A stretch of 64,000 nt of DNA from Marsupella aquatica (taxonomy: Eukaryota > Plantae > Marchantiophyta), in the NCBI GenBank assembly GCA_973895155.1, contig OZ316891.1, positions 23,683,899 to 23,747,898 on the forward strand. The letters are read 5' to 3'. A program made the position numbers and the translations under genes. The notes below the pieces were generated by a model. The model made no database searches. It was not told the origin of the DNA and saw only the letters and a program-made list of their open reading frames with translations. Each line of letters starts with the position of its first letter. Position 1 is the first letter of the stretch. Below, piece after piece: positions 1 through 51,718 of this stretch.

Positions 1-2630
1 GCCGGATCCGGCTTAGAGGCCTTTGTAAGATTACCATGGCTGAAGCCGGAGGTGCCGGATTCAGACCTATTAGAATTTGTGGGGTCATGGGAACCCGAGA
101 CCAATTGCACGAGGATATATGGGAAGGATTTCTATCTTACTCCCAAGGTAATTGCCGAAGTGTTTGGCTTGCCGATAGGCAATAAGACCAAGGTTGATAC
201 CAGGAAGACCTTGCCTGACAAAGAGTTCTGGTCGTTCCCCGGGCCATCAACGAAGAATGGCTTCTTCCGGAACACCTGCACCAACCCACACATAGGAGAG
301 ATGATCGACTTCTTGCGGGTGACCATGCATTGTAACTTGCCGAGGGCAGAGATTGGCAAGGCACAGGTCTATCTGGCAGAGAGGCCAGACCCAAGCCGGG
401 ACTACAATGGGCACCTCCTCAACCAATTGAAGAAGATCTTAAAGGAGGAGCAGCAGGTAATCGGCATGGGGAGCGTGTCGCGGCTTGGCTATCACATGCC
501 GCTGTTGTGCCGGTATGCCAGAGGTCAGACCTTTGCCCCAGTACTTCCCCTGCAGGTAAGGACACCCGAGGAAGCTCCAGCACCGAGGCCGGTAGCAGAA
601 AAGCCTCAACCACCTGTTAGCCCTACGATTGAGCAGGTGTTTAGGCCAAGGAAGGAAGACTTGCCGATGCAGCAACCAGGCATGCAGAATCTGCTACTAC
701 TGGAGAAAGAAAAGAGATCGGCAACGACAACGGCAACGGCAACAATGCAGGACACTGCCCCAGAGGTCAACCTAAGCAGACTTAGAAGGGAAAACCCCTT
801 TACCGGAAATAAGGAGAGAATCAGGCCAGAATCCAAGCCAGGTGTTCGAATGTACGTAGGAGTCTCAAGCTCAGAATCTGAGGCAGAATTGCCTGAAGCT
901 CCTACCGACGAAGAAGAGAGGGAGAAGCCGGAAGTCCAAGAAGTAGAGGAGGCAGTGGAGGACTGCAGCCATGATAACTCCGGCTATGGGTCGGACCATC
1001 ACGTTCCAGGAGTAAGGACCTGTGTCCGGTTTATCCCCACACTTCCAAGGGTAGTACGAGGGGACCCCAACCAGCAGAGTAGCCCTGAGTCTCCCCCACC
1101 AGATGTTTCTCCCCGAGCTTTGACGGCATAAAACAGACGGCGCAGGAATTTCAGGAGCGAATCAGGCAGGAAGGGGAGGCAGCCCTGGCTAGGGAAAAGG
1201 ATTTACCAGGAGGAGATTGGCCGGAGGACATCAGGCGGCTAGCCAAAAAAGGAAGCAAACCTCTAGCCACGATTGAAGAGATCCGCAAGACGGCTTGGGA
1301 GTAGAGGCCGCGATGGGCGATGCCGATCACTTCTACTTACTCCACCTACGCTAAGAATAGAGCCATGGAGTATGGTGAGATGTGTGGGGAACTTGCGCTC
1401 GGCATCTTTGGGGAGGAGTTGGAGGTAGGACCCTTTTTCCATAGGGAGCAGTTGGAGAAGCACCAATAAGATGAAGCGGTGGTTTTAGAGAGAAGCAAGA
1501 AGGACGAGGTCATCCGGTGGCTTAGGAGGATGGAAGCCGAGATTGAAGATCTAAGGGCGGCCAAGAAAGCCCAAGATGAACTGCGGATTAAGCGGCATGA
1601 GCTGAACATCATGCAGGGGCAGTTGGACACAGCGCAGGCTGATAGTCAGATTATCAAGGATAAACTGACTCAGACCCAGGGAGAATTGGCCGATGCAATC
1701 AAGGACAGGGAGAAATGGAAGAAGGAGCTGAGAGACGCAGAGGAGGCCCATATAGCAGTCAACAACTGGGTCATGGCGGAGACCCAAAGAAAGGAATGGG
1801 CGTTGAAGGGGGAGCTCGAGAAAAGCCGCGGAGCCCTTGAGCAGAAGGAGGCCGAGTTAGGGAAATCCTATCAAGGGATTATTGCGTTGCAGCAGGAGCT
1901 TGCGTCCCTAACGGCTAGCTTCAAGGCCGACCTAAGGGAGAAGGACGATATGCTCGATCAGACTTATGCCAAGATGAATAAAATGGAGTCTGAGATCGTG
2001 ACAGAGCTCGACAAAGAGCTAAGAGCAACCCAGGAGGGGCTACCTTGAAGAAGGAATTGGAGGAAGCCCACAGGGAGCAGGAGGAGGCCAAAAACGAGTT
2101 GGAGGGGGCACGTAAGGACCTGGATGAGACCCAGGAGGAATTGGAGGAAATCACGAGGAAGATGGAGAACCTACAGCGGCGGGCCGACAACCAAACAGAG
2201 CGGCTGAAGAAACAAGCCGCAGTATTTAAATGCTTAGCTGTAGCAGGTCCATCGCCCGTTGGGGCGAACCAGTTACCAGGAGTGGTACTGGCCGAAGAAC
2301 AAGCCGCACCACCTGCACCAGTGCCGAAAGTAAGTGGGAAGGGGAAGGGACCAGCTGCCGAGCCGGAAACAAAGAAGAAGCGGAAACCTTCAGGGTCAAG
2401 GAGTAATACGACTCCACAGGCCGTGGTGACCAAGGAGGTAGACCCAGCACCGACCCCAGACAGGGTCATGGCAAAGGATCCAAGGGGAGGCCAAAGCCGT
2501 GGGAGTGGCTCAGGCCGAGGGAGAGTTGACTCGGTCAAGGGCAGGTAATCTGTCAGTAGGCGGGCCAACGGCAATGGCTGAAGAGGAAGCGTTGGGGGCG
2601 TCCATTGAGGATCCACCACCGGTGTCGTGA
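1..2630 (+). pseudogene. Disrupted copy of the LTR-encoded PMD-like/coiled-coil ORF
   Basis: ORF pieces 52-1131, 1479-2048 and 2045-2548 match consecutive parts of the intact protein at 13284-16904, separated by frameshifts and stops. Confidence 0.9.
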
Positions 2631-3544
2631 TGGTGCAAGGGCGTCGTTCCTTTTAGGAAGGGCGGACGTGGAGGTAGGAGGCGTGAGTGGGCAGGGCGGG
2701 CGCTGATCTCCAAGTTTAAGATTAGGATCAGGACCAGGAGCGGCCCTGACACTTAGCTTAGTGGGATTGCGGTTCCACTGGTAGGAGCAACACTTGTGCC
2801 CCTACCTTGCTGTACATAGGTAGATCCGGGCAGGTAGATTACTGTTAGGTAGATTAGGCTTACGCTGCAAAGAATTAGGCGGATTCGCTACCAGGATAAA
2901 TACCTGGGCTGCGGGGAGCTCAGGGCCTCTTCTTTAGCAAGTTTTTAGTTTGCACCAGCCGGGCTAGGATCAAGTAGTAAGAGAAGCTCTCGGTTAGTCA
3001 TACAGTGACCTTGTGTATATTCATGTTTCCTCATGCCTAAGAGCTGAATAGAGTTGGCCTCACGGCTTAGTTCGCAGAGCTTGTGTATGAAATGTACTGT
3101 TTGTATGGCAAGTGCATGGTATGACTCAGTCAAAAGGAGTCATTTTACTATTTGTGTGTCGCATTAACTTGTGTGAAGAGTACCCACATCAACTAATAGG
3201 AGAAGGAAAGTAAGCAAGGGAGTGAGAGTTGGATGTGTCGAGCTGAGAGAGGTCTTAGCGGCTTAACCAAGCCTATTGGGGATCATTCCGGCGGCGGAAT
3301 CCAAATATACCTAACCAGAAGGAGAGGAAGACAAGGGAAGGCCTAGAGTAGGCCGGCTTCATATCTCATGACCCGATGAAGGATCTGTCCAGTATATGTG
3401 TGTAAATTGTTAATAGATGTAGAGGAGATTAGCAGCGTCCCATGCCGCTAAGCCGCGGAAACGGCCCCGCCAAGCGCAAAAGTTGCGGGAATCGGCTTGA
3501 GCTGGGGGGTTTCTTGGGTTTAGGGAGCCATGGGATGCACCACA
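1..3544 (+). mobile_element. Family A giant LTR (5' part outside window), inserted into another family A LTR
   Basis: Colinear with 14164-17825. Ends ...GGGATGCACCACA at 3544 and is followed by TAAAT plus minus-strand family A LTR sequence. No PBS follows, so it is a 3' or solo LTR. Confidence 0.9.
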
Positions 3545-5063
3545 TAAATACTGCGGCTTGTGTCTTCAGCCGCTCCATTTGGTTGTCGGCCCGCCGGTGT
3601 AGGTTCTCCATCTTTCTCGTGATTTCCTCCAACTCCTCCTGGGTCTCGTCCAGGTCCTTGCGCGCCTCCTCCAGCTCCTTATTGGCTTCCTCCAATTCCC
3701 TCCTTAAGGTAGCCCTCTCCTCCTGGGTTGCTCTTAGCTCCTTGTCGAGCTCTACTACGACCACAGACTCCATTTTATTCATCTTGGCATAAGTCTGGTC
3801 GAGCTGGTTGTCCTTTTCACGCAGATCAGCCTTGAAGCTGGCCGTCAGGGACGCAAGCTCCTGCTGCAGCGCAATAATCCCTTGATAGGATTTCCCTAAC
3901 TCTACTTCCTTTTGCTCAAGGGCTCCGCGGATATCTTTGAGCTCTCCTTTCAACGCCCTCTCCCTTCTCTGGTTCTCCGCCATGGCCCGATTGTTGGTTG
4001 CTAAGTGGGCCTCCTCTGCATCCCTTAGCTCCCGCTTCCATTTCTCTCTTTCCTTGACTGCGCCGGCCAACTCTCCTTGGGTCAGAGTCAGTTTATCTTT
4101 GATAATCTGATTGTTAGACTGAGTGGTATCCAACTGCCCCTGCATGATGTTTAGCTCATGCCGCTTAATCCGTAGTTCATCTTGGGCTTTCTTGGCCACC
4201 TGCAGGATTTCCATCTCGGCTTCCTTCTCCCTAAGCCGTCGGATGACCTCGTCCTTCTTGCTCCTCTCCAAAGCCACCGGTTCTTCTAATCGATGCTTTT
4301 CCAACATCTCCCTCTGGAAAAAGGGTCCCTGCTCCAACTCCTCCCCAAAGATGCTGAGCGCCAATTCCCCACACATCTCCCCATACTCCATGGCTCTATC
4401 CTTAGCATAGGTGGAGTAACTAGAAGTCATCGGCATTACCCACCGCGGCCTCTGCTCCCAAGCCGTCTTGCGGATTTCTTCTATGGTGGCAAGAGGGTTG
4501 CTTCTTTTTTTGGCAAGCCGCGTGATGTCCTCCGGCCAATCTCCTCCTGGTAAATCCTTCTCCCTAGCCAGGGCTACTTTCTCTTCCTCCCTAAGTCACT
4601 CCTGAAATTCCTGTGCCCTGGCTAGGGAGAACGCTTCCAATCGTGAAAACGGCCTCTGGTTTCCAGGCTGTCGTCTCCTTCTGCTCTCCATGGAAAGGAG
4701 CCTTAGGCTGCTCTGCCTCTGATTCGGGGCTTGAGGCTCCCACATACATTCGCACTCCCGGCTTGTGTTCTGGCCTCCTTCTCTCCTTGGCTCCGGTAAA
4801 GGGATCTTCCCCTCTGAGTCGGCTTAAGCCGACCTCGGGGGCATCGTCCTGTATTGTTGCCGTTGCCGTTGCCGTTGCCGGAACCGTTCTCTTTTCCTTC
4901 TCCAGCAAGTTCAGCAGAATTTGCATGCCTGGTTGCTACATCGGCACGGCTTCTTTCCTTGTCCGAAACACCTGCTTGATCATTGGACTGTCGGGTTGGT
5001 TGCGCTTCTCTGGTGCCGGCCTCTGCTCCGAAACCTCCTCCGGTCCCCTTGCCAATAGGGGAA

Positions 5064-6404
5064 ATCCGAATTTGGGATAAGGAGTATACGCCGCGGCACT
5101 TCAAACCTGAGGGTAAGACGGACAATGGATACAAGCAGGGGGCGTGCACCAACTTAACCTGTATGGAGCGGCTTAACTTCATACGGACTACCCTACACAT
5201 GATTGAGCCACGATCCGAGATTTCCCTCTGCACGATAGTGCAGATGGAACAGTACAAACGACGAAACTGGGCCCAATTCTTCTACCGAAGATTCTCGGGG
5301 GAGCTGAAGCGGGCTCAGGGTGGTATGGCTATTGGAGGGAAGACTTACTTGGGGAGTCATATCGCCATTATCCTCGCCTGGTACAAGGCACGGTGGGAGG
5401 CCAGAGGAAAGAATACGGCCACCTCAGCCCCGGGTAATGTCACCCCCACCCCAGAGGAGGCAACCCCGACTACGCGGACTACTGTCCCTCGGACAAACCC
5501 CGAGCCGGAAGCCCCGACTAATACTCCGCAATCGCCCCCTGTGGAAATTCCACCGCCTCCTTTCGTTGAGCCTCCGCTACCTGCAGTACAACCACCCCCA
5601 ATCCCTCCACCACCTGAAGAAACCTTCCCCTCCCTAGCGCTGACTACGGAGGAGCTCATTGCCCCTGCCGAGGAACCACCGGTACCCGAGAGGATGGAGG
5701 ACTACCAAGTAGCCCCGGGGACCATGGCCTACGACCTGGTCCAGAAGTTTAGCCAGACTATGTCTGGGGAGTTGGCGACATACATCGGACAACAAGTCTC
5801 GGCGTACTTTCATCCAGCCTTCTTCATGTTAGAGCACCAACCACGGATCGTCAGCCGCTTGGAAGAAGAACTCATGGTGAAGGGGAATGAGATCGGGTGT
5901 CTCCAGATGCTGGTAGAGCACCTCGAGGAGGAGGCAACGACCCGCCGCGAGGATTTAGTCCGCACTGTCGAATAGAGGGACGGACTAACCCAGGAGTTAA
6001 GCGGAGCGCAGGCCGAACTCAAGAAGCTGGACGACACCGTGCTTCAATTACGCTCAGAATCTTCGGCTCGGGTTACCAGCCTGACCGACCTCAACAAACA
6101 ATTCCTGCAGGCAGCACAGCAGGTGGCTAGTCTCTCCGCCGAACGAGATAAATTGCTAGCGCAGGACCAGGTCCATCGCGACGCCATCGACCAGCTCAAC
6201 TTGGAGGTGGCGCGGCTCCAGACTGAAGCCGACGAAGCTGCAAACGAGGCGGAGGAAGCATTACGGGACAACAAGGCTTTGCAGGACCGCGTCACCCTGC
6301 TCGTCCTCCAGCGGGGAAAACCTGGACCCACCTCTGATCAAGGCGGCTTGAGGTCTCGCCCCGACAAGGGGACCAGCCCTGGTCCAACCACTGCACACAC
6401 GTAA
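5064..6404 (+). pseudogene. Family B accessory ORF (PMD-like C-terminal half, Pro-rich linker, coiled coil)
   Basis: ORFs 4983-5975 and 6039-6404 are in frame across one TAG (CAG in the 31.4-kb copy). Motif NGYKQGACTN...LNFIRTTLH...YLGSHIAIILAWY aligns with family A NGFFRNTCTN...IDFLRVTMH...RLGYHMPLLCRY. Confidence 0.75.
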
Positions 6405-7387
6405 GGGGTAGTTAGCGAAGGGTAGAAGCAGGCGCCGCGCGAGGCGGTTAAGTCAACGGCATCTTTTAGTTAGGCGTAACGACAGAATAACTGTCATTAG
6501 GCGCCGATTAGCGGCAGTAGGAAGAATTAGGGCCGATCAGTTAGGATCAGCCAACGTAGGATTGAGTCCATCAACGGACTAGAGTTTGTCAGTAGGCTTG
6601 GCCGCTGCCATTCCGGTTGGCACACTCGTAGTCGACGGTCAACCGGTCAGTGCAGCGCGACCGGTAGTCAGCAGTTAGTTAGTCAGTAGGTAGTACCCCG
6701 GAAGGTAGTATCCTCCGGTTCTCTTCCGCTATGGTAGTATTTAGGCTTCCCCTTCCGCGATGGGAAGGGGGAGAAGGCTTAGTTATCTCAGCAGAAGAAA
6801 GGCGAGGCACGGGGAGTCCCGGCCTGAGTAGGGTCAGAGCGTACCAAGGAGTGAGAGCCAGAGTCGAGCTTGCTGGGCAAGTGCGAGGCAGGGCCTCGTA
6901 GAGACTGGGCATCGACTGCCGTTGGGCCTGCTGACCCCCTTTGAAGTCGAGTCAACCATGTAAACTGATGCTTCGCTGAGTAAATGTAGTCTTTTCCCCT
7001 TAATGTTTTTGAGAGTAACTGGTGTTGTGTGTATGCTTTGTCCGGGCAAAGGCGCCATTTTAAGGGACGTACCGGGTGCGGACTAATGGTAGGGATTGCC
7101 ACTCATTGCATGTCACAAGGTCCTGTCACGTCGATGGCTTGAAAAGCCCCAAGTCGGGAGTTAGTCCGCGTCACTAACTGAGGGAAAATTCCAGCGGTGG
7201 AAAATAAATATACCTATGACAAGTACGAATTATGCGAGTGTTATACCAGTAAGTATAGCGGCTTAGCCCAACTTAGGGCTATTGAAGGTCACTACACACC
7301 TCCTTGCCCGAACCCTCACCCCTACTGGTGGTCGAGGTCGCACCACGACACTAACCCGGATTTAAGGCCCAGGGTAGGGGTGCGACA
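5064..7387 (+). mobile_element. Family B element 3' end (LTR-type terminus ...GGTGCGACA)
   Basis: Homologous to 28270-29106 plus 31335-32827. Ends in CA at 7387, where family A sequence resumes. Confidence 0.8.
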
Positions 7388-9221
7388 CGGCACAACAGCG
7401 GCATGTGATAGCCAAGCCGGGACATGCTTCCCACGCCGATCACCTTCTATTCCTCCTTCAAGATCTCCTTCAGTTGGTTGAGGAGGTACCCGTTATAATC
7501 CCGGCTTGGGTCTGGCCTTTCTGCCAAGTAGACCTGAGCCTTGCCGATCTCTGCCCTCAGCAAGTTACAGTGCATGGTCACCCGCAAGAAATCGATCATC
7601 TCTCCGATGTGTGGGTTGGTGCAGGTGTTCCGGAAAAAGCCATTCTTCGTTGATGGTCCTGGGAACGACCGAAACTCCTTGTCAAGTAAGGTCTTCCTGG
7701 TATCAACCTTGGTCTTATCACCCATCGGCAAGCCAAACACCTCGGCAATCACCCGGGGAGTGAGATAGAAATCCTTCCCATACACCCTTGTGGAATTGGT
7801 CTCGGGTTCCCATGATCCCACAAATTCTAATAAGTCTGAGTCCGGCACCTCTGACTTCAGCCATGGTAATCTTACAAAGGCTTCCAAGCCGGATCCGGCC
7901 ATGAAGCCTTGGTAGTTCTTGGTCTGCATGGCTGTAAAGCATGCATCCTCCTCTCGTGCAAAGTGTAATTGCACTTCCTCCGGTAGGGTCGCCACCCAGC
8001 CTTTCCAGGTGTCATTGTCTGTTGGAATGGCATTGATGGGATTGACCTCTTCCTCCTCGGCTTCTCCCCTAGTCCCGCTCTGCTGCGGTGCTGGCTTCCT
8101 AGGTGCCGCCGACCTCGTTCTTTTTGTCGGGGTGTCCTCTTTGTTGTTGTTTCCTTTCCTCTTCATCTCGGCTGCCGTGGATGTTTCTCCTAGCAAGGTT
8201 GCCTTCGTCCACCCGTTCGTGTTACCCTTCAACTCCCAGTGTAGGTCGCTGCAGCGATTGATGGCTTCTCGGATGCCGACGATTCTGTTTTCGCAAAACA
8301 GAAGGTCGTCGAGCTGATTGGCAGTAAGAGTCCACAAGAACTTGGCCTTGATAAGTTCTCCTCCTAAGAAAGCCGTCTTTTGTAGTTCCCAGAGCCGAGC
8401 GAGTTCCTGCCGTTCTTGAGCTGCTCTCTCCGATTCCTCGTCCTCGTAAGTCCTGATGTACTCACCTGCCCGTTCGAACAAGCATCCCCAAAAATGTGTT
8501 GCTTGAATAATGTTGCTCATAACAGTTGCCTTTGTCCACCCCTCCGTGCTACCCTTCAACTCCCAGTGCGCATCGTTGCAGCGGTTGATGGCTTCCCGAA
8601 TGCCGACGATTCTATCTTTGCAAAATAGAAGGTCATTGAGCTGATTGGCAGTAGGAGTCCACAAGAACTCAGCCTTGATGAGTTCTCCTCCTAAGAAGGC
8701 AGACTTCTGCAGCTCCCACAGTCGAGCAAGCTCCTGCCGTTCTCGAGCTGCTCTCTCCGATTCTTCATCCTCGTAAGTCCTAATGTACTCAGTTGCCCGT
8801 TTGAACAGGCATCCCCAAAAATGTGCCGCTTGATTGACGTTGCTCATACCTCCTTGACTCGATCGTTGGTATCTGTTCCCACCCCGAGTGCTTGCCTAAG
8901 CAGCTAACAGTGATTGGCCTCCCATAGTCGTCTGCCCAGTTCATTCTTGCAAACGAGCCACTATTCCTTGCGAGCGGTCCTTACCCCTCTCCTCCTAAGG
9001 TCTTCCCTCCCGTTGGTCACCCCTAGCCGCCGACGCTTAGCGCGCCCTAACCCTAATCGTGTTTTCTCCCCCCGCATTCTTACTTCCGGCCTCGGCCCGG
9101 GTTCCATAGTCACCCTTAATTGTTTATATTTTCCTTGTTTTGTTCCTATACTAAGGTGTTTCCAGGGTACACTCCTGCCTTACCATTAAACCGGGCTAGT
9201 GATTCTTGGCTAGGCATCACA

Positions 9222-12908: not shown

Positions 12909-13168
12909 TGAAGAACCAAAAACACACTTAAAGGTCTTCAAACTTGGTATTCGTTCTCGTAAAGAACAAGATGGGGTTGGTTTGATAGATTTAAACAATA
13001 ATAAAGAACTAAAAATGTTTTCCACACATAGTAATCAAGTTTGGTTACTTCAATAAGGTATTTTGAAGATCACTCCACAGCGGTGAGTAGTTTTCAATGA
13101 TAACTCAGCATGAGGTAACCATAAATTAATGAAAAGGGAATGATTAACAAAACACAAGAGAAAATAAT

Positions 13169-16100
13169 TGTGATGCCTAGACAGGAATCACTCGGCCGGT
13201 TAAGTGGGTAAAGCAGGAAGGCACCCTAGGAACACCTTAGTATAGTGACAAAACAAGGAAAATATAAACAATTAGGGGCAACCATGGAACCCGGGCAGAG
13301 GCCGGAGGTAAGGCTGAGGGTGAAAACCCGATTAGGGTTAGGGCGCGTTAAGCGTCGGCGGCTAGGAAGGATCAACGGGAAGAAGGACCGGCAGAGGAGA
13401 GGGGTAAGGAGCGCTTGCAGGAGATGGTGGCTCATTTGCGAGCACGAACTAGGCAGACGACTATGGGAGGCCAACTACTGTCAGCTGCTTAGGCAAGCAC
13501 TCGGGGAGAGAGTAGATACCGACGATCAACCTAAGGAGGGTATGAGCAACGTCAATCAAGCGGCACATTTCTGGGGATGCCTGTTCGAACGGGCAACTGA
13601 GTACATCAAGACTTACGAGGACGAGGAGTCAGAAAGGGCAGCTCGAGAACGGCAGGAGCTCGCTCGATTGTGGGAGCTGCAGAAGACGGCTTTCTTAGGA
13701 GGCGAACTCATCAAGGACGAGTTCCTGTGGACGCCTACTTCCAATCAACTCGACGATCTTCTGTTTTGCAAAGACAGCGTCGTCGGCATCCGAGAGGCCA
13801 TCAAGAACTGCAACGACATACACTGGGAATTAAAGGGTAGCACGGAAAGGTGGACCCAGGCAACGGTGCTAGGAGAAACCTCCACGGCAGCAGAGATGAA
13901 GAGGAAGGGAGCCGTCAACGATGAAGCCACCCCGGCAAAAAGAACGAGGTCGGCGGCACCAAAGAAGCCAGCCGAGCAGCAGAGCAGGAGGCAGGGAGAA
14001 GCCGAAGAGGAGGAGGTCGATCCCATCAAGGCCATTCCAACCAGGGATGACACCTGGAAGGGCTGGGCGGCAACCCTACCGGTGGAGGTGCAACTACATT
14101 TTGCACGGGAGGAGGATGCATGCTTTACGGCCATGCAGACCAAGAAGTACCAAGGCTTCATGGCCGGATCCGGCTTGGAGGCCTTTGTAAGATTACCATG
14201 GCTGAAGCCGGAGGTACCGGAGTCAGACCTATTAGAATTCGTGGGGTCATGGGAACCCGAGACCAATTGCACGAGGATATATGGGAAGGATTTCTATCTT
14301 ACTCCCAAGGTGATTGCCGAAGTGTTTGGCTTGCCGATGGGCAATAAGACCAAAGTTGATACCAGGAAGACCTTGCCTGACAAGGAGTTCCGGTCGTTCC
14401 CCGGGCCATCAACGAAGAATGGCTTCTTCCGGAACACCTGCACCAACCCGCACATAGGAGAGATGATCGACTTCTTGCGGGTGACCATGCATTGTAACTT
14501 GCCGAGGGCAGAGATCGGCAAGGCACAGGTCTATCTGGCAGAAAGGCCAGACCCAAGCCGGGACTACAACGGGTACCTCCTCAACCAATTGAAGATCTTA
14601 AAGGAGGAGCAGCAGGTAATCGGCATGGGGAGCGTGTCGCGGCTTGGCTATCACATGCCGCTGTTGTGCCGGTATGCCAGAGGTCAGACTTTTGCCCCGG
14701 TACTTCCCCTGCAGGTAAGGGCACCCGAGGAAGCTCCAACGCCGAGGCCGTTGGCTGAGAAGCCTCAACCACCTGTTAGTCCTACGATCGAGCAGGTGTT
14801 TAGGCCCAGGAAGGAAGACTTGCCGATGCAGCAACCAGGCATGCAGAGTCTGCTGAAACTACTGGAGAAAGAAAAGAAATCGGCATCGGCAACAACAACG
14901 GCAACGGCAACAATGCAGGACACTACTACAGAGGTAGGCCTACACCGGCTCACAAGAGAAAACCCCTTTGCTGGAGACAAGGAGAGAATCAGGCCGGAAT
15001 CCAAGCCAGGTGTTCGAATGTACGTGGGAACCTCAAGCTCCGAATCTGAGGCAGAATTGCCTGAAGCTCCTACCGAGGAAGAGGAGAGGGAGAAGCCGGA
15101 AATCCAAGAGGTAGAGGAGGCAGTGGAGGACTGCAGCCATGATAATTCCGGCTATGGGTCGGACCATCACGTTCCAGGAGTAAGGACCTGTGGCCGGTTT
15201 GTCCCCACACTTCCAAGGGTAGTGCGAGGGGACCCCAACCAGCAGAGTAGCCCTGAGTCTCCCCCACCAGATGTTGCTCCCCCGAGCTTCGACGGCATAA
15301 AACAGACGGTGCAGGAATTTCAGGAGCGAATCAAGCAGGAGGAAGAGGCCGCCCTGGCTAAGGAAAAGGATTTACCAGGAGGAGATTGGCCGGAGGACAT
15401 CAGGCGGCTAGCCGAAAAAGGAAGCAAACCTCTAGCCACGATTGAAGAGATCCGCAGGACGGCTTGGGAGCAGAGGCCACGATGGGCGATGCCGATCACT
15501 TCTACTTACTCCACCTACGCTAAGAATAGAGCCATGGGGTATGGTGAGATGTGTGGGGAACTTGCGCTCGGCATCTTTGGAGAGGAGTTGGAGGTAGGAC
15601 CCTTTTTCCATAGGGAGCAGTTGGAGAAGCACCAATTAGAAGAAGCGGTGGCTTTAGAGAGAAGCAAGAAGGACGAGGTCATTCGGCGGCTTAGGAGGAT
15701 GGGAGCCGAGATTGAAGATCTAAGGGCGGCCAAGAAAGCCCAAGATGAACTGCGGATTAAACGACATGAGCTGAACATCATGCAGGGGCAGTTGGACGCC
15801 GCGCAAGCTGATAATCAGAATATCAAGGATAAACTGACTCAGACGCAGGAAGAGTTGGCCGACACGATCAAAGAAAGGGAAAAGTGGAAGCAAGAGCTGA
15901 AGAATACAGAGGAGGCCCACATAACAGCCAACAGCCGGGCCATGGCGGAGACCCAAAGAAAGGAATGGGCGTTGAAAGGAGAGCTCGAGAAAATCCGCGG
16001 AGCCCTTGAGCAGAAGGAGGTCGAGTTAGGGAAATCCTATCAAGGGATTATGGCGCTGCAGCAGGAGCTTGCGTCCCTGACGGCCAGCTTCAAGGCCGAC

Positions 16101-17825
16101 CTAAGGGAGAAGGACGAGATGCTCGAACAGACTTACGCCAAGATGAACCAGATGGAGTCTGTCATCATTGCAGAGCTCGACAAGGAGCTAAGAGCAACCC
16201 AGGAGGAGAGGGCTACCTTGAAGAAGGAATTGGAGGAAGCCCACAGGGAGCAGGAGGAGGCCAAAAACGAGCTGGAGGGGGCACGTAAGGACCTGGATGA
16301 AACCCAAGAGGAGTTGGAGGAAATCACGAGGAAGATGGAGAACCTACAACGGCGGGCCGACAACCAAACAGAGCGGCTGAAGAAACAAGCCGCAGTATTT
16401 AAATGCTTAGCTGCAGCAGGTCCATCTCCTGTTGGGACAAACCAGTTACCAGGGGTGGTAATTGCCGAAGGACAAGCCGCGCCACCTGCACCAGTGCCGG
16501 AAGTAAGTGGGAAGGGGAAGGGACCAGCTGCCGAGCCACCAACGAAGAAGAAGCGGAAACCTTCAGGGTCAAGGAGTAATACGACTTCACAGGCCGTGGT
16601 GATCAAGGAGGTAGACCCAGCACCGACCCCAGACAGGGTCACGGCTAAGGATCCAACTACCCTAGGGGAAGGGGAGGCCGAAGCCGTGGGGTTGGCTGAA
16701 GCCGAAGCCGTGGGAGTTGCTGAGGCCGAAGCCGTGGGTATTGTCGAGGCCGGTGTCGAGGCTGAAGCCGAAGGTGGACCCAGTCAGGCCGATGGAGAGT
16801 TGACTCGGTCAAGGGCAGGTAATCTGTCAGTAGGCGGGCCAACGGCAGTGGCTGAGGAGGAAGTGTTGGGGGCGTCCATTGAGGATCCACCACCGGTGTC
16901 GTGACGGTGCAAGGGCGCCGTTCCTTTTAGGGAGGGCGGACGTGGAGGGAGGAGGCGTGAGTGGGCAGGGCGGGCACGGATCTCCACGTTTAGGATTAGG
17001 ATCAGAACCAGGAGCGGCCCTGACACTTAGCTTAGTGGGATTGCGGTCCCACTGGGAGGAGCAACACTTGTGCTCCTGCCTTGCTGTACATAGGTAGATT
17101 CGGGCAAGTAGATTACTGTTAAGTAGATTAGGCTTACGATGCAAAGAATGGCGGATCCACTACCAGGATAAGTACCTGGGCAGCGGGGAGCTCAGGCCCT
17201 CTTCTTTAGCAAGTTTTTAGTTTGCACCAGCCGGGCTGGGATCAAGTAGTACGAGAAGCTCTCGGTTAGTCATACAGTGACCCTTGTGTATATTCATGTT
17301 TCCTCATGCCTAAGAGCTGAATAGAGTTGGCCTCACGGCTTAGTTCGCAGAACTTGTGTATGAGATGTACTGTTTGTATGGCAAGTGCATGGTATGACTC
17401 AGTCAGAATGAGTCATTTTGCTATTTGTGTGTCGCATTGACTTGTGTGAAGAGTGCCCACATCAACAGAAGGAAGGAAAGTAAGCAGGGGAGTGAGAGTT
17501 GGATGTGTCGAGCTGAGAGAGGTCTTAGCGGCTTAACCAAGCCTATTGGGGATCATTCCGGCGGCGGAATCCAAACATACCTAACAAGACAGAGGGGAAG
17601 ACAGGGGAAAACAGGGGAAGGCCTATATTAGGCCGGCTACGTATCTCATGACCCGATGAAGGATCTGTCCAGTATATGTGTGTAAAATGTTAATAGTAGT
17701 AGTAGAAGGTTAGCAGCGTCCCATGCCGCTAAGCCGCGGAAACGGCCTCGCCAAGCACGAAACCTGCGGGAATCGGCTTGAGCTGGGGGGTTTCTTGGGT
17801 TTAGGGAGCCATGGGACGCACCACA
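13169..17825 (+). mobile_element. Family A solo LTR, 4657 bp
   Basis: TGTGATGCC...CACCACA termini with a perfect 5-bp TSD ATAAT (13164-13168 and 17826-17830). No PBS or PPT adjacent. Length matches the 3' LTR at 40856-45513 (4658 bp). Confidence 0.95.
13284..16904 (+). CDS. LTR-encoded ~1206-aa protein: basic N-terminus, helical domain, PMD/Transposase_32-like domain, acidic/Pro linker, ~250-aa coiled coil, basic NLS-like motif, acidic repeats
   Basis: Uninterrupted ORF from ACCATGG at 13284. Motif LEAFVRLPW...LLEFVGSW...TRIYGKDFYLTPKVIAEVFGLP resembles plant-transposon mobile domains. Heptad-rich E/K/Q/R region and KKKRK motif. Five other copies are colinear. Confidence 0.85.
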   Translation: MEPGQRPEVRLRVKTRLGLGRVKRRRLGRINGKKDRQRRGVRSACRRWWLICEHELGRRLWEANYCQLLRQALGERVDTDDQPKEGMSNVNQAAHFWGCLFERATEYIKTYEDEESERAARERQELARLWELQKTAFLGGELIKDEFLWTPTSNQLDDLLFCKDSVVGIREAIKNCNDIHWELKGSTERWTQATVLGETSTAAEMKRKGAVNDEATPAKRTRSAAPKKPAEQQSRRQGEAEEEEVDPIKAIPTRDDTWKGWAATLPVEVQLHFAREEDACFTAMQTKKYQGFMAGSGLEAFVRLPWLKPEVPESDLLEFVGSWEPETNCTRIYGKDFYLTPKVIAEVFGLPMGNKTKVDTRKTLPDKEFRSFPGPSTKNGFFRNTCTNPHIGEMIDFLRVTMHCNLPRAEIGKAQVYLAERPDPSRDYNGYLLNQLKILKEEQQVIGMGSVSRLGYHMPLLCRYARGQTFAPVLPLQVRAPEEAPTPRPLAEKPQPPVSPTIEQVFRPRKEDLPMQQPGMQSLLKLLEKEKKSASATTTATATMQDTTTEVGLHRLTRENPFAGDKERIRPESKPGVRMYVGTSSSESEAELPEAPTEEEEREKPEIQEVEEAVEDCSHDNSGYGSDHHVPGVRTCGRFVPTLPRVVRGDPNQQSSPESPPPDVAPPSFDGIKQTVQEFQERIKQEEEAALAKEKDLPGGDWPEDIRRLAEKGSKPLATIEEIRRTAWEQRPRWAMPITSTYSTYAKNRAMGYGEMCGELALGIFGEELEVGPFFHREQLEKHQLEEAVALERSKKDEVIRRLRRMGAEIEDLRAAKKAQDELRIKRHELNIMQGQLDAAQADNQNIKDKLTQTQEELADTIKEREKWKQELKNTEEAHITANSRAMAETQRKEWALKGELEKIRGALEQKEVELGKSYQGIMALQQELASLTASFKADLREKDEMLEQTYAKMNQMESVIIAELDKELRATQEERATLKKELEEAHREQEEAKNELEGARKDLDETQEELEEITRKMENLQRRADNQTERLKKQAAVFKCLAAAGPSPVGTNQLPGVVIAEGQAAPPAPVPEVSGKGKGPAAEPPTKKKRKPSGSRSNTTSQAVVIKEVDPAPTPDRVTAKDPTTLGEGEAEAVGLAEAEAVGVAEAEAVGIVEAGVEAEAEGGPSQADGELTRSRAGNLSVGGPTAVAEEEVLGASIEDPPPVS

Positions 17826-20227
17826 ATAATCTCAAAGTACGCTAAGGGAGTCTGGAATAGACCAAGGTTACTCCTTAGACATAAGTCAAAATGAAAAGAC
17901 TTAAGGATTCAAATCCATATTGCTTCTCAGATCTAAACTGCTTACTAGAGTACCTTTTAAAATGCCGTCAACATGTCTTATCCTTTCTTTCTAAGTGGTA
18001 CTCAGATAAGATCTAAAAGGTAGCTACTTCAACATTTAGATGGTACTGAGCAACACGAAAGAAAATCCATCAATTTCAATGAGACTTAAACTCAATAAGT
18101 TAACTTTAAGAACTCAAGAGATTGCAATGAATCACCAACAAGGAATCTATCATTACAATTCAAAAGATTTGCACAAAAGGAAGTTTACTTCCTATGTTTA
18201 TAATCATAGGTAAAAACACAAGAAGGAGGTAAGTCTCTAAATGTTAAACCTGATCTCGAACTCATAGATTCATGATCAACTAGTTTAACACAAAGAAAAG
18301 GCAAAAATGCATAACTTAACTGTCACGCGATTGACATGGGTCTTAACACCAAAAATGTCACTAAGGGTGCCAAAACCATCTCCTTGTACCTGAGGATCAC
18401 GAAGGGATGTTGTGAAGGCCGGTAAACACCAATTTATGCCCTTAACACCAGACTATCATAGCAAGACTCTATCACACATCACCCAAGCTCAATCCCAAGG
18501 AACCAAGGTTGGGGATCAGATCTGCGCTCATGATAGTTTTGGTGAGAAGGGGTCTTCATATTGGGCCCGTACACACAGGGCCTAGCGCTACGGTGCGCAT
18601 AGGTCTATACGTATGCTTACTGTCATAGGTGTATTTCTATTCCGCCGCCAGAATGTACCCATAACCAGTGACTCCTGACTGATTCCCAGCTTAGGGACTT
18701 CTAAGCCATTGCCCGGGTATAGCGACGGAGACAGGAAACAGGTAAACATGAATTTTTTTCCTATTTTTAATATGCTGTTACCAGGAAAAAATCACTGTTA
18801 CCAGGAAAAATGACAATTTAAAAATGTCTCCTAAAACATGTTATTTCCCAAAAAAATTAACAATGCAACATTTTTGGCTAGCTTTGGGCGCTAGCAAAAA
18901 AAACTGGTCCACCAATTTTTTTTTTCAAAAAAAATTCAAAAAAAATTCAAAAAAAATTTCCACCCATTTTCCTGTTACCAGTTTTTTTCCTGTTACCAGT
19001 TCTGTTATTAAATCATGTTTCCTGGTTGCTGTCTTTTGTAAACACCTCCCATTGCCCCACCACTCTGCCATTCCACTCTCAGCAATCAGAGCTATGACAG
19101 TCCTCACCCAACCCGCTTCAATGCACCCTGTACACCTCTTAGTGGCGCTGCTAGTCCCATCATACACTCAGATTGCCTCACACACACACACATCCATGAG
19201 AGAAATGAGGCCTGAGAGGAAAACTCAATTAGATTCAAAGATGTGCACAACAGCTCACTGAGAACACTCCCCATGGATCACGTAGCCTTGCCAGACTGAA
19301 CTGTAAATGCTCCTCCTGCTGCCCCTCAAATAGTGTCTCAACCTCCCTAATGTGCTCACCACAAATCAAATTGAAATCCTTCCCACAGTTTACAATCACC
19401 AATACATCACCTATCACCAAGGCTCTATATCGAGGGAAAAGAACCCAGTTGTGTTGCCCACTAGAAAGAGCCATAATCCAGCTCGCAAACCTAGCAACCC
19501 GTTGTTGTGAAGCTTGGCTGATTACTCCCTGAGTAATAGCACCACCAAGCTCTCCCCAACACGCAGTGTCCAAGTCTAGCCTTGCTTGCACAGAGCTCCT
19601 CCATGCTGCTCAGTCTACGTGAGATCACACAACTGGAGTTCCCCCCCCTTGCCTCTACCGGGGGGCTGCTCTATATACTCTCATACTGAGCCAAAATGGG
19701 TGGATACTACACTGCTAGAGCCCCATCCCAGCCCTAACAGAGCCGCCACTATCTTAACTACTGAACCCTAACTCGCAACTTTATTTCTATCTTGAATTGG
19801 CTATGTACTTCGGATTTGGCCCTCCTCCATGGTTTTTGCGAGCTTGCGCCTCCTCTCCCGATTTCTCTATTCAACCATTTTCTGCGTGGATAGCAGCGTT
19901 GGAAGCGGCTTGAGCTCCTCTTTCCAACGAGGTCAATCATAGCCGATTTGGCCAAATACACAGAAAGTTATGCCCCCGCAACCGAGAGGGGGTACTCATT
20001 GCTACGCTAACCCGAGTTACAGAGCTAACCCGAGTTCGGCTAGCCTAGCTATCCTATCTAACCTTAGAAGAGTTAACCCGAGCATTTAATTTAATTAGAG
20101 GAAGCCAGGAAGGAGAAAGAGCAGAATGGCCGGGAGGAAGTTTATTCACCTTTGGGATTGAGAAGCTAAACTGAAGGGACAAGAGGGAAGAAAGTATGAG
20201 GTGCATAGTGGCCTCGGGCTAAGCCGC

Positions 20228-21875: not shown

Positions 21876-21960
21876 TTAGGAACTTAGTAACTTTGAATGC
21901 TATTTCAGTTCTAGTTAGCAATAATTGCAGTCTAAACACCGTAAAAAATTTAGGAATTGA

Positions 21961-22849: not shown

Positions 22850-25800
22850 TGTGGTGCATCCCATGGCTCCCCAAACCCAAGAAACCCCCCCGCCCAAGCT
22901 GATTCCCGCAGGTTTCATGCTCGGCAAGGCCGTTTCCGTGGCTTAGCGGCATGGGATGCTGCTAACCTCCTACTACTACTATTAACATTTTACACACATA
23001 TACTAGACAAATCCTTCATCGGGTCATGAGATACGCAGTTGGCCTAATCTAGACCTTCTCTTGTCTTTCCCTCCTGTTGGTTAGGTATATTTGGATTCCG
23101 CCGCCGGAATGATCCCCAATTGGTTTGGTTAAGCCGCTAAGACCTCTCTCAGCTCGACACATCCAACTCTCACTCCCTTGCTTACTTCCCTTCTACTTGT
23201 TGATGTGGGCACTCTTCACACAAGTTAATGCGACACACAAATAGAAAAATGACTCCTTCTGACTGAGTTATACCATGCACTTGCAATACAAATAGTACAT
23301 CTCATACACAAGCTCTGCAAACTAAGCCGTGAGGCCAACTCTATTCAGTTCTTAGGTATGAGGAAACATGAATATACACAAGGGTCACTATATAACTAAC
23401 TGAGAGCTTCTCTTACTACTTGTTCCCAGCCCTGCTGGTGCAACTAAAAACTTGCTAAAGAAGAGGCCCTGCACTCCCCGCAGCCCAAGTACTTATCCTG
23501 GTCGTGGATCCGCCTGATTCCTTGCAGCGTAAGCCTAATCTACCTACTGTAATCTACCTATGTACAGCAACGCAGGAGCACAAGTGTTGCCTTCACCCGT
23601 GGATCCAAAATCCCACTAATCTAAGTGTCAGGGCCATCTCCTGGTCCTGATCCTAAGTCTAAACTTGGAGATCAGCGCCTGCCCTGCCCACTCACGCCTC
23701 CTACCTCCACGTCCGCCCTCCCTAAAAGGGACGGCGCCCTTACACCATCACGACACCGGTGGCTGGTCCTCAATGGACGCCCCCAATGCTTCCTCCGCAG
23801 CCACTGCCGTTGGTCCGTCCTCTGACAGATTACCTGCCCTTGATCGAGTCAACTCTTCATCGGCCTGACTGGGTCCACCCTCGGCTTTGGCCTCAACATC
23901 GGTCACGGCCTCCGATACGGCTACGGCCTCCTCGACATGTTCTAGTGGAGGATCCGGTACCTCGGCATCATTACTGGTTCTCTCGGCCTTGGCCTTGCCA
24001 TCTCCACTTCCTAGGACTGGTGGATCCACCGCCGTGCCGATGCCAGAGATTGGTGCCGGGTTTATCTTCTCGGTCACAACGGCTTGAGAAGCCGTATAAC
24101 CCCCAGACCTAGAAGGTTTCCGCTTCTTCTTCTTCCCTATTTTGACAGCCGGTTCCTTCCCCTTGCCACTTACCTTCAGCACCGGGGTGAGTGTTTCGGC
24201 TTGTCCTGCGGCCAATACTACCCCTGGTAACTGGGTTCCCCATTTGGAGTTGGACCTGATGAAGCCAAGCATTTAAATACTGCGGCTTGTGTCTTCAGCC
24301 GCTCCATTTGGTTGTTGGCCCGCCGCTGTAGGTTCTCCATCTTCCTCGTGATTCCCTCCAACTCCTCTTAGGTCTCATCCAGGTCCTTGCACGCCTCCTC
24401 CAGCTCCTTATTGGCTTCCTCCAATTTTTTCTTTAAGGTAGCCCTCTCCTCCTGGGTTGCTCTTAGCTCCTTGTCGAGCTCTGCTACGACCACAGACTCC
24501 ATCTTATTCATCTTGGCATAAGTCTGGTTGAGCTGGTCGTCCTTTTCACGCAGGTCGGCCTTGAAGCTGGCCGTTAGGGACGCAAGCTCCTACTGCAGCG
24601 CAATAATCCCTTGATAGGATTTCCCTAACTCTGCTTCCTTCTGCTCAAGGGCTCTGCGGATATCTTCAAGCTCTCCTTTCAACGCCCTCTCCCTTCTCTG
24701 GTTCTCTGCCATGGCCCGATTGTTGGTTGCTAAGTGGGCCTCCTCTGCATCCCTTAGCTCCCGCTTCCATTTCTCTCTTTCCTTGACTGCGCCGGCCATC
24801 TGATTGTCAGACTGAGCGGTATCCAACTGCCCCTACATGATGTTTAGCTCATGCCGCTTAATCTGTAGCTCATCTTGGGCTTTCTTGGCCACCTGCAGGA
24901 CTTCCACCTCGGCTTCCTTCTCCCTAAGCCACCGGATGACCTCGTCCTTCTTGCTTCTCTCCAAAGCCACCGCTTCTTCTAATCGGTGCTTTTCCAACAA
25001 CTCCCTTTGGAAAAAGGGTCCTTGCTCCAACTCCTCCCCAAAGATGCTGAGCGCGAGGTCCCCACACATCTCCCCGTACTCCATGGCTCTATCCTTAGCA
25101 TAGGTGGAGTAACTAGAAGTCATTGGCATCAACCACCGCGGCCTCTGCTCCCAAGCCGCCTTGCGGATTTCTTCTATGGTGGCAAGAGGGTTGCTTCTTT
25201 TTTTGGCAAGCCGCCTGATGTCCTCCGGCCAATCTCCTCCTTGTAAATCCTTCTCCCTAGCCAAGGCTGCTTTCTCTTCCTCCCTAAGTCGCTCCTGAAA
25301 TTCTTGTGCCGTCTGCTTTATGCCGTCAAAGCTCGGGGGAGCAATCTCTGGTGGGGGAGACTCGGGGCTACTTTGCTGGGTGGGGTCCCCTCGAACTACT
25401 CTTGGAAGCGTGGGGATAAATTGGCCACAGGTCCTTACTCCTGGAACATGATGATCCGACCCATAGCCAGAGCTATCATTGCTGTAGTCCTCCACCGCCT
25501 CCTCCACTACTTGGACTCCCAGCTTCTCCCTTTGTTCCCCTGGTCCAGTCGTGAAAACGGCCTTATAGATCACGGGCTCTGGTTCCTCTGGTTTCCAGGC
25601 TGACGTCTCCCTCTGCTCTCCACGGGAAGGAGCCTTAGACTGCTCTGCCTCTGATTCGGGGCTTGAGGCTCCCACATACATTTGCACTCCCGACTTATGT
25701 TATGGCCTCCTTCTCTCCTTGGCTCCGGTAAAGGGGTCTTCCCTTCTGAGTTGGCTTAGGCCGACCTATGGGGCAGCGTCCTATATCGGTGCCGTTGCCG

Positions 25801-27531
25801 TTGCCGGAACCGTTCTCTTTTCTTTCTCCAGCAATTTCAGCAGATTTTGCATGCCTGGTTGCTACATCGGCAAGTCTTCTTTCCTTGTCCGAAACACCTG
25901 CTCGATCATCGGACTGTCAGGCTGGTTGGGCTTCTCTGGTGCCGGCCCCTGCTCTGGAACCTCCTCCGGTGCCCTTGCCGATAGGGGAAGTACTGGGGCA
26001 AAGATTTGACTTCTGGCATACCGGCACAACAACGGCATGTGATAGCCAAGCCGGGACACGCTTCCCACGCCGATCACCTGCTGTTCCTCCTACAAGATCT
26101 TCTTCAGTTGGTTGAGGAGGCACCCATTGTAATCCCGGCTTGGGTCTGGCCTTTCTGCCAGGTAGACCTGAGCCTTGCCGATCTCTGCCCTCGGCAAGTT
26201 ATAGTGCATGGTCACCCGCAAGAAATCGATCATCTCTCCGATGTGCGGATTGGTGCAGGTGTTCCGGAAGAAGCCATTCTTCGTTGATGGTCTTGGGAAC
26301 GACCGGAACTCCTTGTCAGGTAAGGTCTTCCTGGTATCAACCTTGGTCTTATTACCCATCGGCAAGCCAAACACCTCAGCAATCACCCGGGGAGTGAGAT
26401 AGAAATCCTTCCCATACACCCTCGTGGAATTGGTCTTGGGTTCCCATGATCCCACAAATTCTAATAAGGCTGAGTCCGGCACCTCCAGCTTCAGCCATGG
26501 TAATCTTACGAAGGCTTCCAAGCCGGATCTGGCCATGAAGCCTTGGTACTTCTTGGTCTACATGGCCGTAAAGCATGCATCCTCCTCCCGTGCAAAGTGT
26601 AATTGCACTTCCTCCGGTAGGGTTGCCGCCCAGCCTTTCTAGGTGTCATCGTTTGTTGGAATGGCATTGATGGGATTGACCTCTTCATCTTTGGCTTCTC
26701 CCCTTGTCCTGCTCTGCTGCTCTGCTGGCTTCCTAGGTGCCGCCGACCTCGTTCTTTTTGCCGGGGTGGCCTCTTTGTTGTTGTTTCCTTTCCTCTTCAT
26801 CTCGGTTGCCATGGATGTTTCTCCTAGCAAGGTTGCCTTTGTCCACCCCTCCGTGTTACCCTTCAACTCCCAGTGTAGGTCGTTGTAGCGATTGATGGCT
26901 TCCTGGATGCCGACGATTCTGTTTTCGCAAAATAGAAGGTCATTGAGCTGATTGGCAATAGGAGTCCACAAGAACTCGGCCTTGATAAGTTCTCCTCCTA
27001 AGAAAGCCGTCTTCTGCAGTTCCCAGAGCCGAGCAAGCTCCTGCCATTCTCGAGCTGCTCTCTTCGATTCTTCGTCCTTGTAAGTCCTGACGTACTCACC
27101 TGCCCGTTCAAACAGGCATCCCCAAAAATGTGCCACTTGATTGACGTTGCTCATACCCTCCTTGAGTCAATTGTTGGTATCTGTTCTCACCCCAAGTGCT
27201 TGCCTAAGCAATTGACAGCATTTGGCCTCCCGTAGTTGTCTGCTCAGTTTGTTCTTGCAAATGAGCCACTATTCCTTGCGAGCGGTCCTTACCCCTCTCC
27301 TCCTTTGGTCTTCCCTCCCGTTGGTCATCCCTAGCCGCCGACGCTTAGCGGGCCCTAACCCTAATCGTGTTCTCTCCCCCGGCGTCCTTACTTCTGGCCT
27401 CGGCCCAGGTTCCATAGTCACCCTTAATTGTTTATATTTTCCTTGTTTTTGTTCCTATACTAAGGTGTTTCCAGGGTACACTCCTGCTTTACCATGTAAG
27501 CCGGGCTAGTGATCCCTGGCTAGGCATCACA
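22850..27531 (-). mobile_element. Family A isolated LTR, 4682 bp, ORF disrupted, no TSD
   Basis: Both termini are present. Flanks GAGGG and GTAGC do not match. ORF fragments 23748-24272, 24590-24826, 24833-25687, 26090-26536 and 26639-27154. Confidence 0.9.
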
Positions 27532-48500: not shown

Positions 48501-48755
48501 ATTGGTAGTCGGCTTTCCTTCCTGCCTTGGCTCTAGATTGGGTATGTGCATTTCATCCGTCTCTTCCTCTTGAGGGTCAGGCCGCTGTGCTCTCCTGGCT
48601 TCTACTAGGGCCTCAATTTGTTCTGCCCTCGTAATCGGCTTGTATGCCGATCCCTTGGTTTTTAACTCCTTGCCAATGATAGATGGCGTTGTGGATCTTG
48701 CCGGCTCTGCCACAACCCCTGAGGAAAATCCACCATCTTGGGTATTGCTCCCCAC
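45502..48755 (-). pseudogene. pol: Family A pol (RT-RNase H-integrase)
   Basis: ORFs 48135-48755, 45868-48042 and 45502-45771. RT FIDD, RNase H FVDVS/EREAL, integrase HHCC and D-D-E (GIDYIG, VSDRG, TER). The stop lies in the first 12 nt of the LTR. Confidence 0.92.
45514..45526 (-). promoter_or_regulatory. Polypurine tract
   Basis: AAGTGGGGAGCTA immediately 5' of the LTR TG. Identical at 35083-35095. Confidence 0.75.
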
Positions 48756-51696: not shown

Positions 51697-51714
51697 CCCC
51701 TCCATCTAGCGCCA
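51697..51714 (-). promoter_or_regulatory. Primer-binding site (tRNA-Asn-like) of family A
   Basis: TGGCGCTAGATGGAGGGG, 4 nt after the LTR CA end at 51719. Confidence 0.8.
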
Positions 51715-51718
51715 AAAA

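Follow-up and report, generated by a model that had tools for sequence, protein, structure and literature searches.

The DNA described here is a stretch of 64,000 nucleotides (the window) from the liverwort Marsupella aquatica (assembly GCA_973895155.1, contig OZ316891.1, positions 23,683,899 to 23,747,898). At 13169..17825 on its forward strand lies a 4,657-bp unit that is almost certainly a solo long terminal repeat (LTR) of an Athila-like Ty3/Gypsy retrotransposon family with an open reading frame (ORF) inside it. The unit begins with TGTGATGC and ends with GCACCACA, TG..CA termini that form an inverted repeat at 7 of 8 positions. It is flanked on the left (13164..13168) and on the right (17826..17830) by the target-site duplication (TSD) ATAAT, a pair with a chance probability of about 0.005 at local composition. 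The frame at 13284-16904 is open for 1,206 codons, begins at LTR position 116 and fills 78% of the LTR. The likely coding sequence within it, at 13542..16904, specifies an intact protein of 1,120 amino acids, and a non-coding tail of 921 bp (16905..17825) follows.

The limits of the LTR recur at other junctions in the window. Its 5' end also stands directly after an identical polypurine tract (PPT; AAGTGGGGAGCTA, followed by TG) at 45513 and at 35082, where the internal regions upstream of the tracts are different and 89.5% alike, and its 3' end also stands directly before TTTT and a TGG-starting sequence resembling a primer-binding site (PBS) at 51719. The two PPTs belong to elements D and E on the reverse strand. 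In element D, a complete 3' LTR (copy D, 40856..45513) is colinear with the solo LTR over its entire length in a self-comparison of the window, and is preceded by the PPT at 45514-45526. The 6.2 kb between 51718 and 45514 hold a broken region for gag, protease (PR), reverse transcriptase (RT), RNase H (RH) as well as integrase (INT) at 45502..51649, and the PBS-like site at 51697..51714, whose TGG start lies 4 nt past the CA of the LTR. The element closes with a 5' LTR stump at 51719..52392, the last 674 bp of the repeat. Stump and copy D differ at 8 of 674 sites and are the closest pair in the window, which fits the two LTRs of one element. In element E, a PPT (35083-35095) and pol precede an internally deleted and truncated 3' LTR, copy E (32830..35082). 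The pol frame reads through the PPT and ends at a TAG at LTR positions 10-12 in both elements, leaving no room for an internal extra ORF.

No direct repeat joining the two ends of 13169-17825 was found, and the unit is therefore not a short-LTR element built around a cargo ORF. Both LTRs of a retrotransposon are copied from one template, and the left end of a solo LTR derives from the 5' LTR. All three left ends in the window that abut target DNA and not a PPT (at 13169, 27531 and 9221) continue into the ORF, so that a short, ORF-less 5' LTR, the arrangement posed as the counter-case in the original prediction, is very unlikely. The 5' LTR of element D is cut at 52392 by other, unrelated DNA and has no TG start and no TSD there; a 5-mer resembling the right flank of the element, 36 bp past the stump, was taken as chance, with no TG after it. 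A DNA transposon with short inverted repeats is ruled out by the PPT and PBS junctions, and a non-autonomous element of the TRIM (terminal-repeat retrotransposon in miniature) or LARD (large retrotransposon derivative) type by the absence of terminal direct repeats around the cargo region. The original prediction had fixed the LTR limits by the ATAAT duplication, the PPT and TG junctions at 45513 and 35082, and the CA and PBS-like junction at 51719, and these limits stand. Its placement of an ORF within a ~4.66-kb LTR, in sense with gag-pol, is confirmed, and its claim that the solo LTR retains the gene whole agrees with the intact ORF at 13169-17825.

The ORF is under purifying selection from Met87 on. 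The ratio of nonsynonymous to synonymous substitution rates (dN/dS) is 0.10-0.43 in all 20 overlapping pairs of LTR copies in the window, as compared with 0.55-1.18 and 1.09-1.85 in the shifted frames; in the antisense frames, it is low only in the frame that shares the wobble position. Codons 87-1060 give 0.17-0.25, with a bootstrap upper 95% limit of at most 0.32 in four pairs, which is close to the values for pol (0.20) and gag-PR (0.21), and the neutral evolution weighed in the original prediction is not borne out. Over the last 146 codons, the ratio rises to 0.64-1.04, yet the TGA stop is common to all four copies that reach it. Codons 1-86 of the first-called ORF (13284..13541) give 0.39-1.04, carry stops or frameshifts in all four other copies, and are likely a 5' leader and not coding. 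Contigs of four public sequencing runs were also aligned to 40600-52700 and 13090-14000, and 40 best-supported variants of 137 were considered, 34 of them in frame. After Met87, 17 of 22 fall at third codon positions, as against 2 of 12 before it (p 0.001). The homologues P0127, P0141 and P0150 have their initial Met at the position of Met87, and none of them matches residues 1-86. By dN/dS, third-position variants and homologue starts together, coding likely begins at Met87 (13542, LTR position 374), and coding sequence from there occupies 72% of the LTR. The original description of a 3.6-kb ORF starting at LTR position 116 and filling about 78% of the repeat thus holds for the open frame, while its start was called 86 codons early. 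What the dN/dS signal records is selection during replication of the family, not retention of solo LTRs at the host level, and the intact solo copy may simply be young.

Upstream of the gene, a TATA-like block, AAAATATAAACAATTA, at 13259..13274 (LTR +91..106) is a putative promoter of the LTR gene; in the first 373 nt of the LTR, no other run of letters identical in five copies is as long (16 nt). A TATATAA also lies between TG and ORF in two of the related loci described below, L002 and L006. Transcription from this block would start about 30 nt beyond it, that is, after the ATG of the first-called ORF, and the LTR gene likely has a promoter of its own. In the leader at 13284-13541, a telobox-like 15-mer (13330-13344) is invariant, and two donor-like sites of the form GT(A/G)AG are conserved. 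Downstream, the tail is the most conserved part of the LTR, 90-94% identical among copies as compared with 83-94% for the ORF. It is a candidate ancestral LTR of about 0.9 kb, which would carry the genomic promoter and a poly(A) region (TGTA-rich, 17354-17450). The word TTAG is strand-biased in the tail (14 occurrences, 5.9 expected), a motif chosen after inspection and likewise biased in the ordinary LTR of a relative, L003. TTAG and telobox enrichment was set aside as a target motif of the protein, being post hoc and also found in that LTR.

Three parts of the protein stand out, namely an N-terminal conserved domain with no family assigned (residues 87-215, 13542..13928), a globular domain that is the most constrained (residues 266-490, 14079..14753), and a long coiled coil (about residues 785-1036, 15636..16391) with KKKRK and then a low-complexity tail after it. 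A basic linker lies between the N-terminal and globular domains, and an acidic, proline-rich linker and a helical region follow the globular domain. No transmembrane or hydrophobic segment was found (the best 19-residue hydropathy is 1.11), which rules out an env-like membrane protein. An exhaustive homologue search with the ORF recovered 23 proteins, including several unnamed ones of Calypogeia fissa, where word-based searches recovered none. For P0149 and P0150, pairwise alignment with residues 87-215 did not beat shuffled sequences (30 of 500 and 212 of 500 scored as well), so that N-terminal homology is seen in the multiple alignment only. A metagenome scan with P0149 gave no relative.

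The AlphaFold model of the globular domain has a predicted local distance difference test (pLDDT) score of 69.7. Its best match among 48,161 chains is the anti-silencing factor VANC21 bound to DNA (9lnk; Z 7.3, root-mean-square deviation 4.5, 201 aligned residues; the next chain has Z 2.8), and the model of the Calypogeia homologue P0150, 21% identical, has the same top match (Z 7.4, deviation 4.3, 197 aligned), although a Z below 8 can reflect a common arrangement and the alignments of both models share rows. The other structure matches of the P0150 model concern another part of that protein. Atlas neighbours at 0.87-0.91 are DUF1985, the plant mobile domain (PMD), ATHILA ORF-1 and Transposase_32, with DUF1985 the first named (0.90, 138 shared features); these scores rest on fewer than 170 shared features and serve as leads only. 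A homologue in the related locus L004 weakly matches Transposase_32 (160 of 177 positions, E 2.5e-4). A Foldseek search against viral models gave one unnamed row (E 0.01, TM 0.29), which was not used. From the models, the domain of about 200 residues is predicted to fold like VANC21, PMD and DUF1985. The protein is predicted as likely to bind DNA of its own family and counteract host silencing, an anti-silencing role that we put at, or slightly under, an even chance.

The family is best placed as Athila-like, a Ty3/Gypsy non-chromovirus, from its gene order and signals. The order is GAG-PR-RT-RH-INT, the protease being seen as a DGGSG motif in translation only. No chromodomain was found in pol, and no second, archaeal-type RNase H in the pieces from PR to the end of INT. 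With the 5-bp TSD and the PBS form, these absences are the grounds for the placement. Element size would be about 15.5 kb. Athila elements have a PBS for tRNA-Asp or tRNA-Asn; the TGG-starting site here, 4 nt after CA, is of a type that may match tRNA-Asn, and the related loci L001 and L003 share its form with the distant loci L008-L033. Tat elements (TatI-III, Ogre, Retand) are ruled out by the lack of an additional archaeal-type RNase H. Phygy and Selgy, which likewise have an internal region filled by pol, are described in passages of PMC6317226 as having a 4-bp TSD (NCGN in Phygy), no extra ORF and a size of 4-10 kb, and are ruled out by the ATAAT 5-bp TSD, the extra ORF and the ~15.5 kb here. 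Athila, as outlined in parts of the same source, shares the domain order, the lack of a chromodomain and of a second RNase H, the 5-bp TSD and the large size. Further shared features are a TGG-type PBS a few nucleotides past CA, an additional ORF that follows pol in sense orientation and has a domain close to ATHILA ORF-1/Transposase_32, and an extra PPT near that ORF (reported in part of PMC2829016, citing Athila4 and Calypso). In contrast to Athila, the extra ORF here is found beyond the PPT, within the LTR, where pol also ends, and the window ORF has no Pfam match.

Relatives were sought among 79 loci fetched with a pol alignment, many of which end near pol or are distant. A profile of the globular domain matches seven of the 79 at E <=0.05, with short, weak matches in L033 and L078 not counted; a profile of the N-terminal domain matches none of the 79. 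In five loci among the closest (L001, L003, L004, L005 and L006, with 51-58% pol identity), a sense ORF situated 300-850 nt beyond pol encodes the globular domain, and L002 ends inside the start of the ORF. The layout comparison covers L001, L002, L003, L004 and L006, with L005 left out. L003 is a circular contig of a whole element, in which pol is followed by a PPT-like site without TG, the ORF, a family-type PPT with TGTGATG, an LTR of about 1 kb and a PBS. In L004, too, a PPT and TG come after the ORF, some 50 nt past its stop. In L001, L002 and L006, a family-type PPT and TG instead stand right after pol, ahead of the ORF, which would put the ORF inside the LTR, although these sequences end short of the far end of the LTR and a second PPT and TG beyond is possible. 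The TG end of L001 forms a perfect 9-bp inverted repeat with the LTR end before its PBS, an end that does not recur in the following 1.37 kb. Among the distant elements, L008 (13593-17393), L010 (6849-10865) and L027 (14785-17559) have internal extra ORFs of 925-1,339 codons followed by a PPT, and L027 and L033 also have a PPT-like site directly ahead of the ORF.

In the pol tree, the main family joins Calypogeia and Riccia proteins, apart from the Rosa and Melia rows. A single clade nested among the others (SH-aLRT 96) unites L001, L002, L006, the main family and the Calypogeia pol proteins, in a tree made by a quick method and without classified references, for which 70 of 500 label shuffles scored equally low. 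The closest named pol proteins are those of Calypogeia fissa (68% over 440 columns), then of Riccia and Marchantia, and a leafy liverwort is the probable host. When the two PPT motifs of L003 were compared with the window LTR, the best of 461 windows lay at 16913-16940, just past the stop, although three of five PPT queries put other windows above it (27, 78 and 381 scored higher). This PPT-like relic (16913..16940, 9-36 nt past the stop) is a candidate former LTR-proximal PPT, and the 0.9-kb tail has the size of the L003 LTR (~1 kb). A portion of PMC2829016 reports an additional PPT in Athila4 and Calypso and states that upstream-primed DNA is outcompeted by that from the natural PPT. It seems fairly likely from these sequences that the gene came into the LTR by a shift of the PPT; insertion of the gene into the U3 (unique 3') region of an ORF-less element is a possible alternative origin.

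Beyond these features, the window holds six ORF-bearing LTR copies that are 82-94% alike, one of them split in two by later insertions, in addition to the 674-bp stump. Copy B (1..3544, forward strand) is cut by the window edge and its ORF is broken. Copy F/G (3545..9221, reverse strand) has its left end in the gag of another element, is interrupted at 5064-7387 by a related family and is cut by copy B; in copy F, the N-terminal domain is tandemly duplicated at 8181-8850 (327 nt, in frame). Copy C (22850..27531, reverse strand) is full-length with 12 stops and no TSD; it is flanked by two different families in opposite orientation and is likely the product of recombination between the LTRs of two insertions. 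Between elements D and E, synonymous divergence is 0.38 in the LTR ORF, twice that of pol (0.19), hinting at exchange of ORF variants among internal regions or at faster evolution.

A second family (27532-32827 and 5064-7387, both forward strand) carries a paralogue of the LTR gene, with 28-31% domain identity and a coiled coil. As with the main family, a CA end follows its ORF stop, here at 985 bp; it lacks its left end, and each of its two copies sits inside an ORF of the main family. The globular domain has a third paralogue (21865-22849, reverse strand; 27% identity), which is cut by LTR copy C. An AT-rich repeat of another family (52393-53070) replaces most of the 5' LTR of element D and the start of a chromovirus-type Gypsy element (53070-59255, forward strand). 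Between its protease and RT, this chromovirus encodes a C5 cytosine methyltransferase domain (Pfam DNA_methylase, E 6.6e-8) in a frame that continues past stops, and a PHD finger comes after the integrase. A passage of bioRxiv 10.64898/2026.05.21.726589 refers to Gypsy-DNMT3 elements of streptophytes as already known. A further main-family internal region (60036-64000, reverse strand), 93% like 47483-51448, abuts a remnant of the chromovirus LTR (59429-60035).

These features can be joined into one proposed chain. In the ancestor, two PPTs would have flanked the accessory gene, as they do in L003 and L004. Plus-strand priming, and the TG end with it, would then have shifted to the site next to pol, the downstream PPT would have decayed, and U3 would have grown by about 3.75 kb to take in the accessory gene. 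Its mRNA would begin at the TATA block (LTR +91..106), end in the poly(A) region that belonged to the former 0.9-kb LTR, and could arise from 5', 3' and solo LTRs; genomic RNA would start at a second promoter in the tail. The protein, with a sequence-specific DNA-binding domain and oligomerizing through its coiled coil, would act like VANC and PMD proteins on the non-coding DNA of its own element. We give about an even chance to the whole chain, in which a self-promoted, VANC/PMD-like accessory gene borne in U3 protects the family from silencing. A broader proposal, that a bryophyte Gypsy clade moved a VANC-like gene into its LTR, that solo LTRs are scattered, self-contained, expressed genes lifting silencing in trans, and that this would be the first anti-silencing system of an LTR retrotransposon and one undeletable by LTR recombination, is more doubtful.

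Several results weigh against this chain, in addition to the limits given above for the tree, the PPT relic, the related loci and the structural scores. The 64-kb window contains no element with two complete LTRs, and the ORF is intact in the solo copy only, the remaining five of six copies being broken with 2-12 stops each. Of the eight variants listed for the ORF of copy D, three fall at third codon positions, so that the bias is absent there; nearly all contigs differ from copy D at these sites, and the variants are probably private mutations of that copy. Pfam gave coiled-coil noise only for the LTR ORF, with no DUF1985 and no PF10536, and neither a PDB sequence search with the ORF nor a Foldseek search of PDB with the domain model gave a match. 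The sequence is 8-10% identical to VANC21, and likeness of fold does not establish function. The non-coding parts of the LTR lack a VANC-type array, no 8-9-mer occurring more than twice. For the extra ORFs of Athila, Ogre and Retand, passages of PMC7264820 and PMC11963269 treat function as an open question.

The alternative that fares best, and one compatible with the other readings, is that the gene works only from active full-length elements, while solo LTRs are silenced and decaying and the solo copy here is intact only through youth. We consider this quite possible, if somewhat short of even. The stops or frameshifts in five of six copies are in its favor, as is the observed/expected CpG ratio, which is 0.56-0.72 across all copies and 0.68 in the solo copy. 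In public run X1, moreover, 971 of 2,602 contigs are at least 99% like the 5' part of the solo, which points to a large and young subfamily. The public-run contigs as a whole number in the thousands and are short, indicating a high-copy family; none is long enough to link PBS to ORF, and their summed depth over the ORF, which is not a copy number, is about 3-5 times the internal depth. Set against silent solos is the solo itself, which joins promoter-like block, ORF and tail and whose VANC-like product could unsilence its own template.

The same architecture could also serve another job, in which the protein would tie the integration complex to certain chromatin or would assist particle assembly or nuclear import. 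The window copies are lodged in, or next to, other retroelements, frequently inside gag or a homologous ORF, but such nesting is expected in any repeat-rich region. Pol has no chromodomain, proteins with the Athila domain are predicted in sections of PMC13547354 to oligomerize and contact many host proteins, and nuclear or regulatory accessory roles are proposed in parts of the reviews PMC7264820 and PMC11963269. The sole solved structure that was matched is nevertheless an anti-silencing factor, and a different job is comparatively unlikely. Slightly less likely again is a giant R (repeat) region, in which the TATA block at +91 is the only promoter and the ORF lies in R, not in U3. The ORF mRNA would then end at the poly(A) site of the 5' LTR, and gag-pol would be expressed by read-through or by splicing that skips the ORF. 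The TATA block is the best in the LTR, with weaker TATA-like words alone in the tail, and the two conserved donor-like sites could pair with a conserved T-rich CAG near 17229, judged by eye as a possible acceptor. Splice-like words are, however, frequent by chance, a 4-kb R would need unusually long strong-stop DNA, and the tail has the size of the whole L003 LTR and is the most conserved part, as expected if it has its own promoter. Finally, that 13169-17825 is not an LTR but a non-autonomous element with a deletion, or the 3' part of an internal region joined to a short LTR, would suit the lack of a two-LTR element, the stump of merely 674 bp and the internal ORF of L003 and L004, but is very improbable given the TSD right against TG, the absent terminal direct repeat, the PPT immediately before TG in two places, the three target-joined left ends reaching the ORF, the missing TG and TSD at the stump, and the inverted repeat of L001.

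Among known systems, the sag gene of mouse mammary tumor virus (MMTV), a betaretrovirus, is a whole gene inside the LTR and present at both ends, about a quarter of the size of the one here and encoding a membrane protein; the window ORF, by contrast, has no hydrophobic segment. A functional comparison for the proposed anti-silencing chain is VANC21 of VANDAL21 (PDB 9lnk; PMC5735166), with which the protein shares coding by a transposon as an accessory protein, the predicted fold of about 200 residues and a coiled coil. According to passages of PMC5735166, VANC contains DUF1985, and it binds short motifs located in non-coding DNA and erases methylation. VANC21 differs in coming from a Mutator-like DNA transposon, whereas the present gene is LTR-borne in a retrotransposon, its product, so distant in sequence, has no DUF1985 Pfam match, and its LTR has no tandem motif arrays. 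The plant mobile domain (MAIN/MAIL1; PMD-A) shares the structural tie to VANC and, for PMD-A, coding by a retrotransposon. The host protein PMD-C is described in parts of bioRxiv 10.1101/2024.09.27.615353 as structurally like VANC, opposing Polycomb silencing and acting at promoters with telobox elements, and the window LTR has the conserved telobox-like 15-mer. The same preprint, PMC5735166 and PMC13547354 report in places that PMD-C, VANC and DUF1985 are structurally alike and anti-silencing, and PMC13547354 that VANC and the Athila domain are both predicted as coiled-coil pentamers. Unlike these, the window ORF has no PF10536 match, and the PMD of Ogre is mostly antisense and internal in the account excerpted from PMC6317226. 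Ogre and Retrosat2 share long LTRs (2-6.5 kb), extra ORFs and many solo LTRs, but passages of PMC6431247 and PMC3485330 put these ORFs in the internal region. Extra ORFs are placed internally by reviews (PMC7264820) and likewise in portions of PMC6317226, PMC11963269, PMC6431247, PMC3485330 and PMC1142308. In the literature searched, whose scope leaves out most subscription papers, no description was found of a plant retrotransposon LTR containing a protein gene; PMC1560396 and PMC6673714 were rejected as precedents, since in the passages concerned a matching phrase has a different meaning.

The position of the gene in the LTR alters the arithmetic of host control, for solo-LTR formation drops gag-pol and leaves the gene with its likely promoter and poly(A) region. 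The VANC-like fold, as predicted, leads to a concrete test, namely of whether a retrotransposon protein lifts silencing in a sequence-specific way. Taken together, the decayed candidate PPT and the sister families in which the gene lies inside or outside the LTR would illustrate how, by a simple path, an LTR can become several times larger and acquire a gene. Solo LTRs of such families would be annotated as intronless host genes; the homologues include several unnamed proteins of C. fissa.

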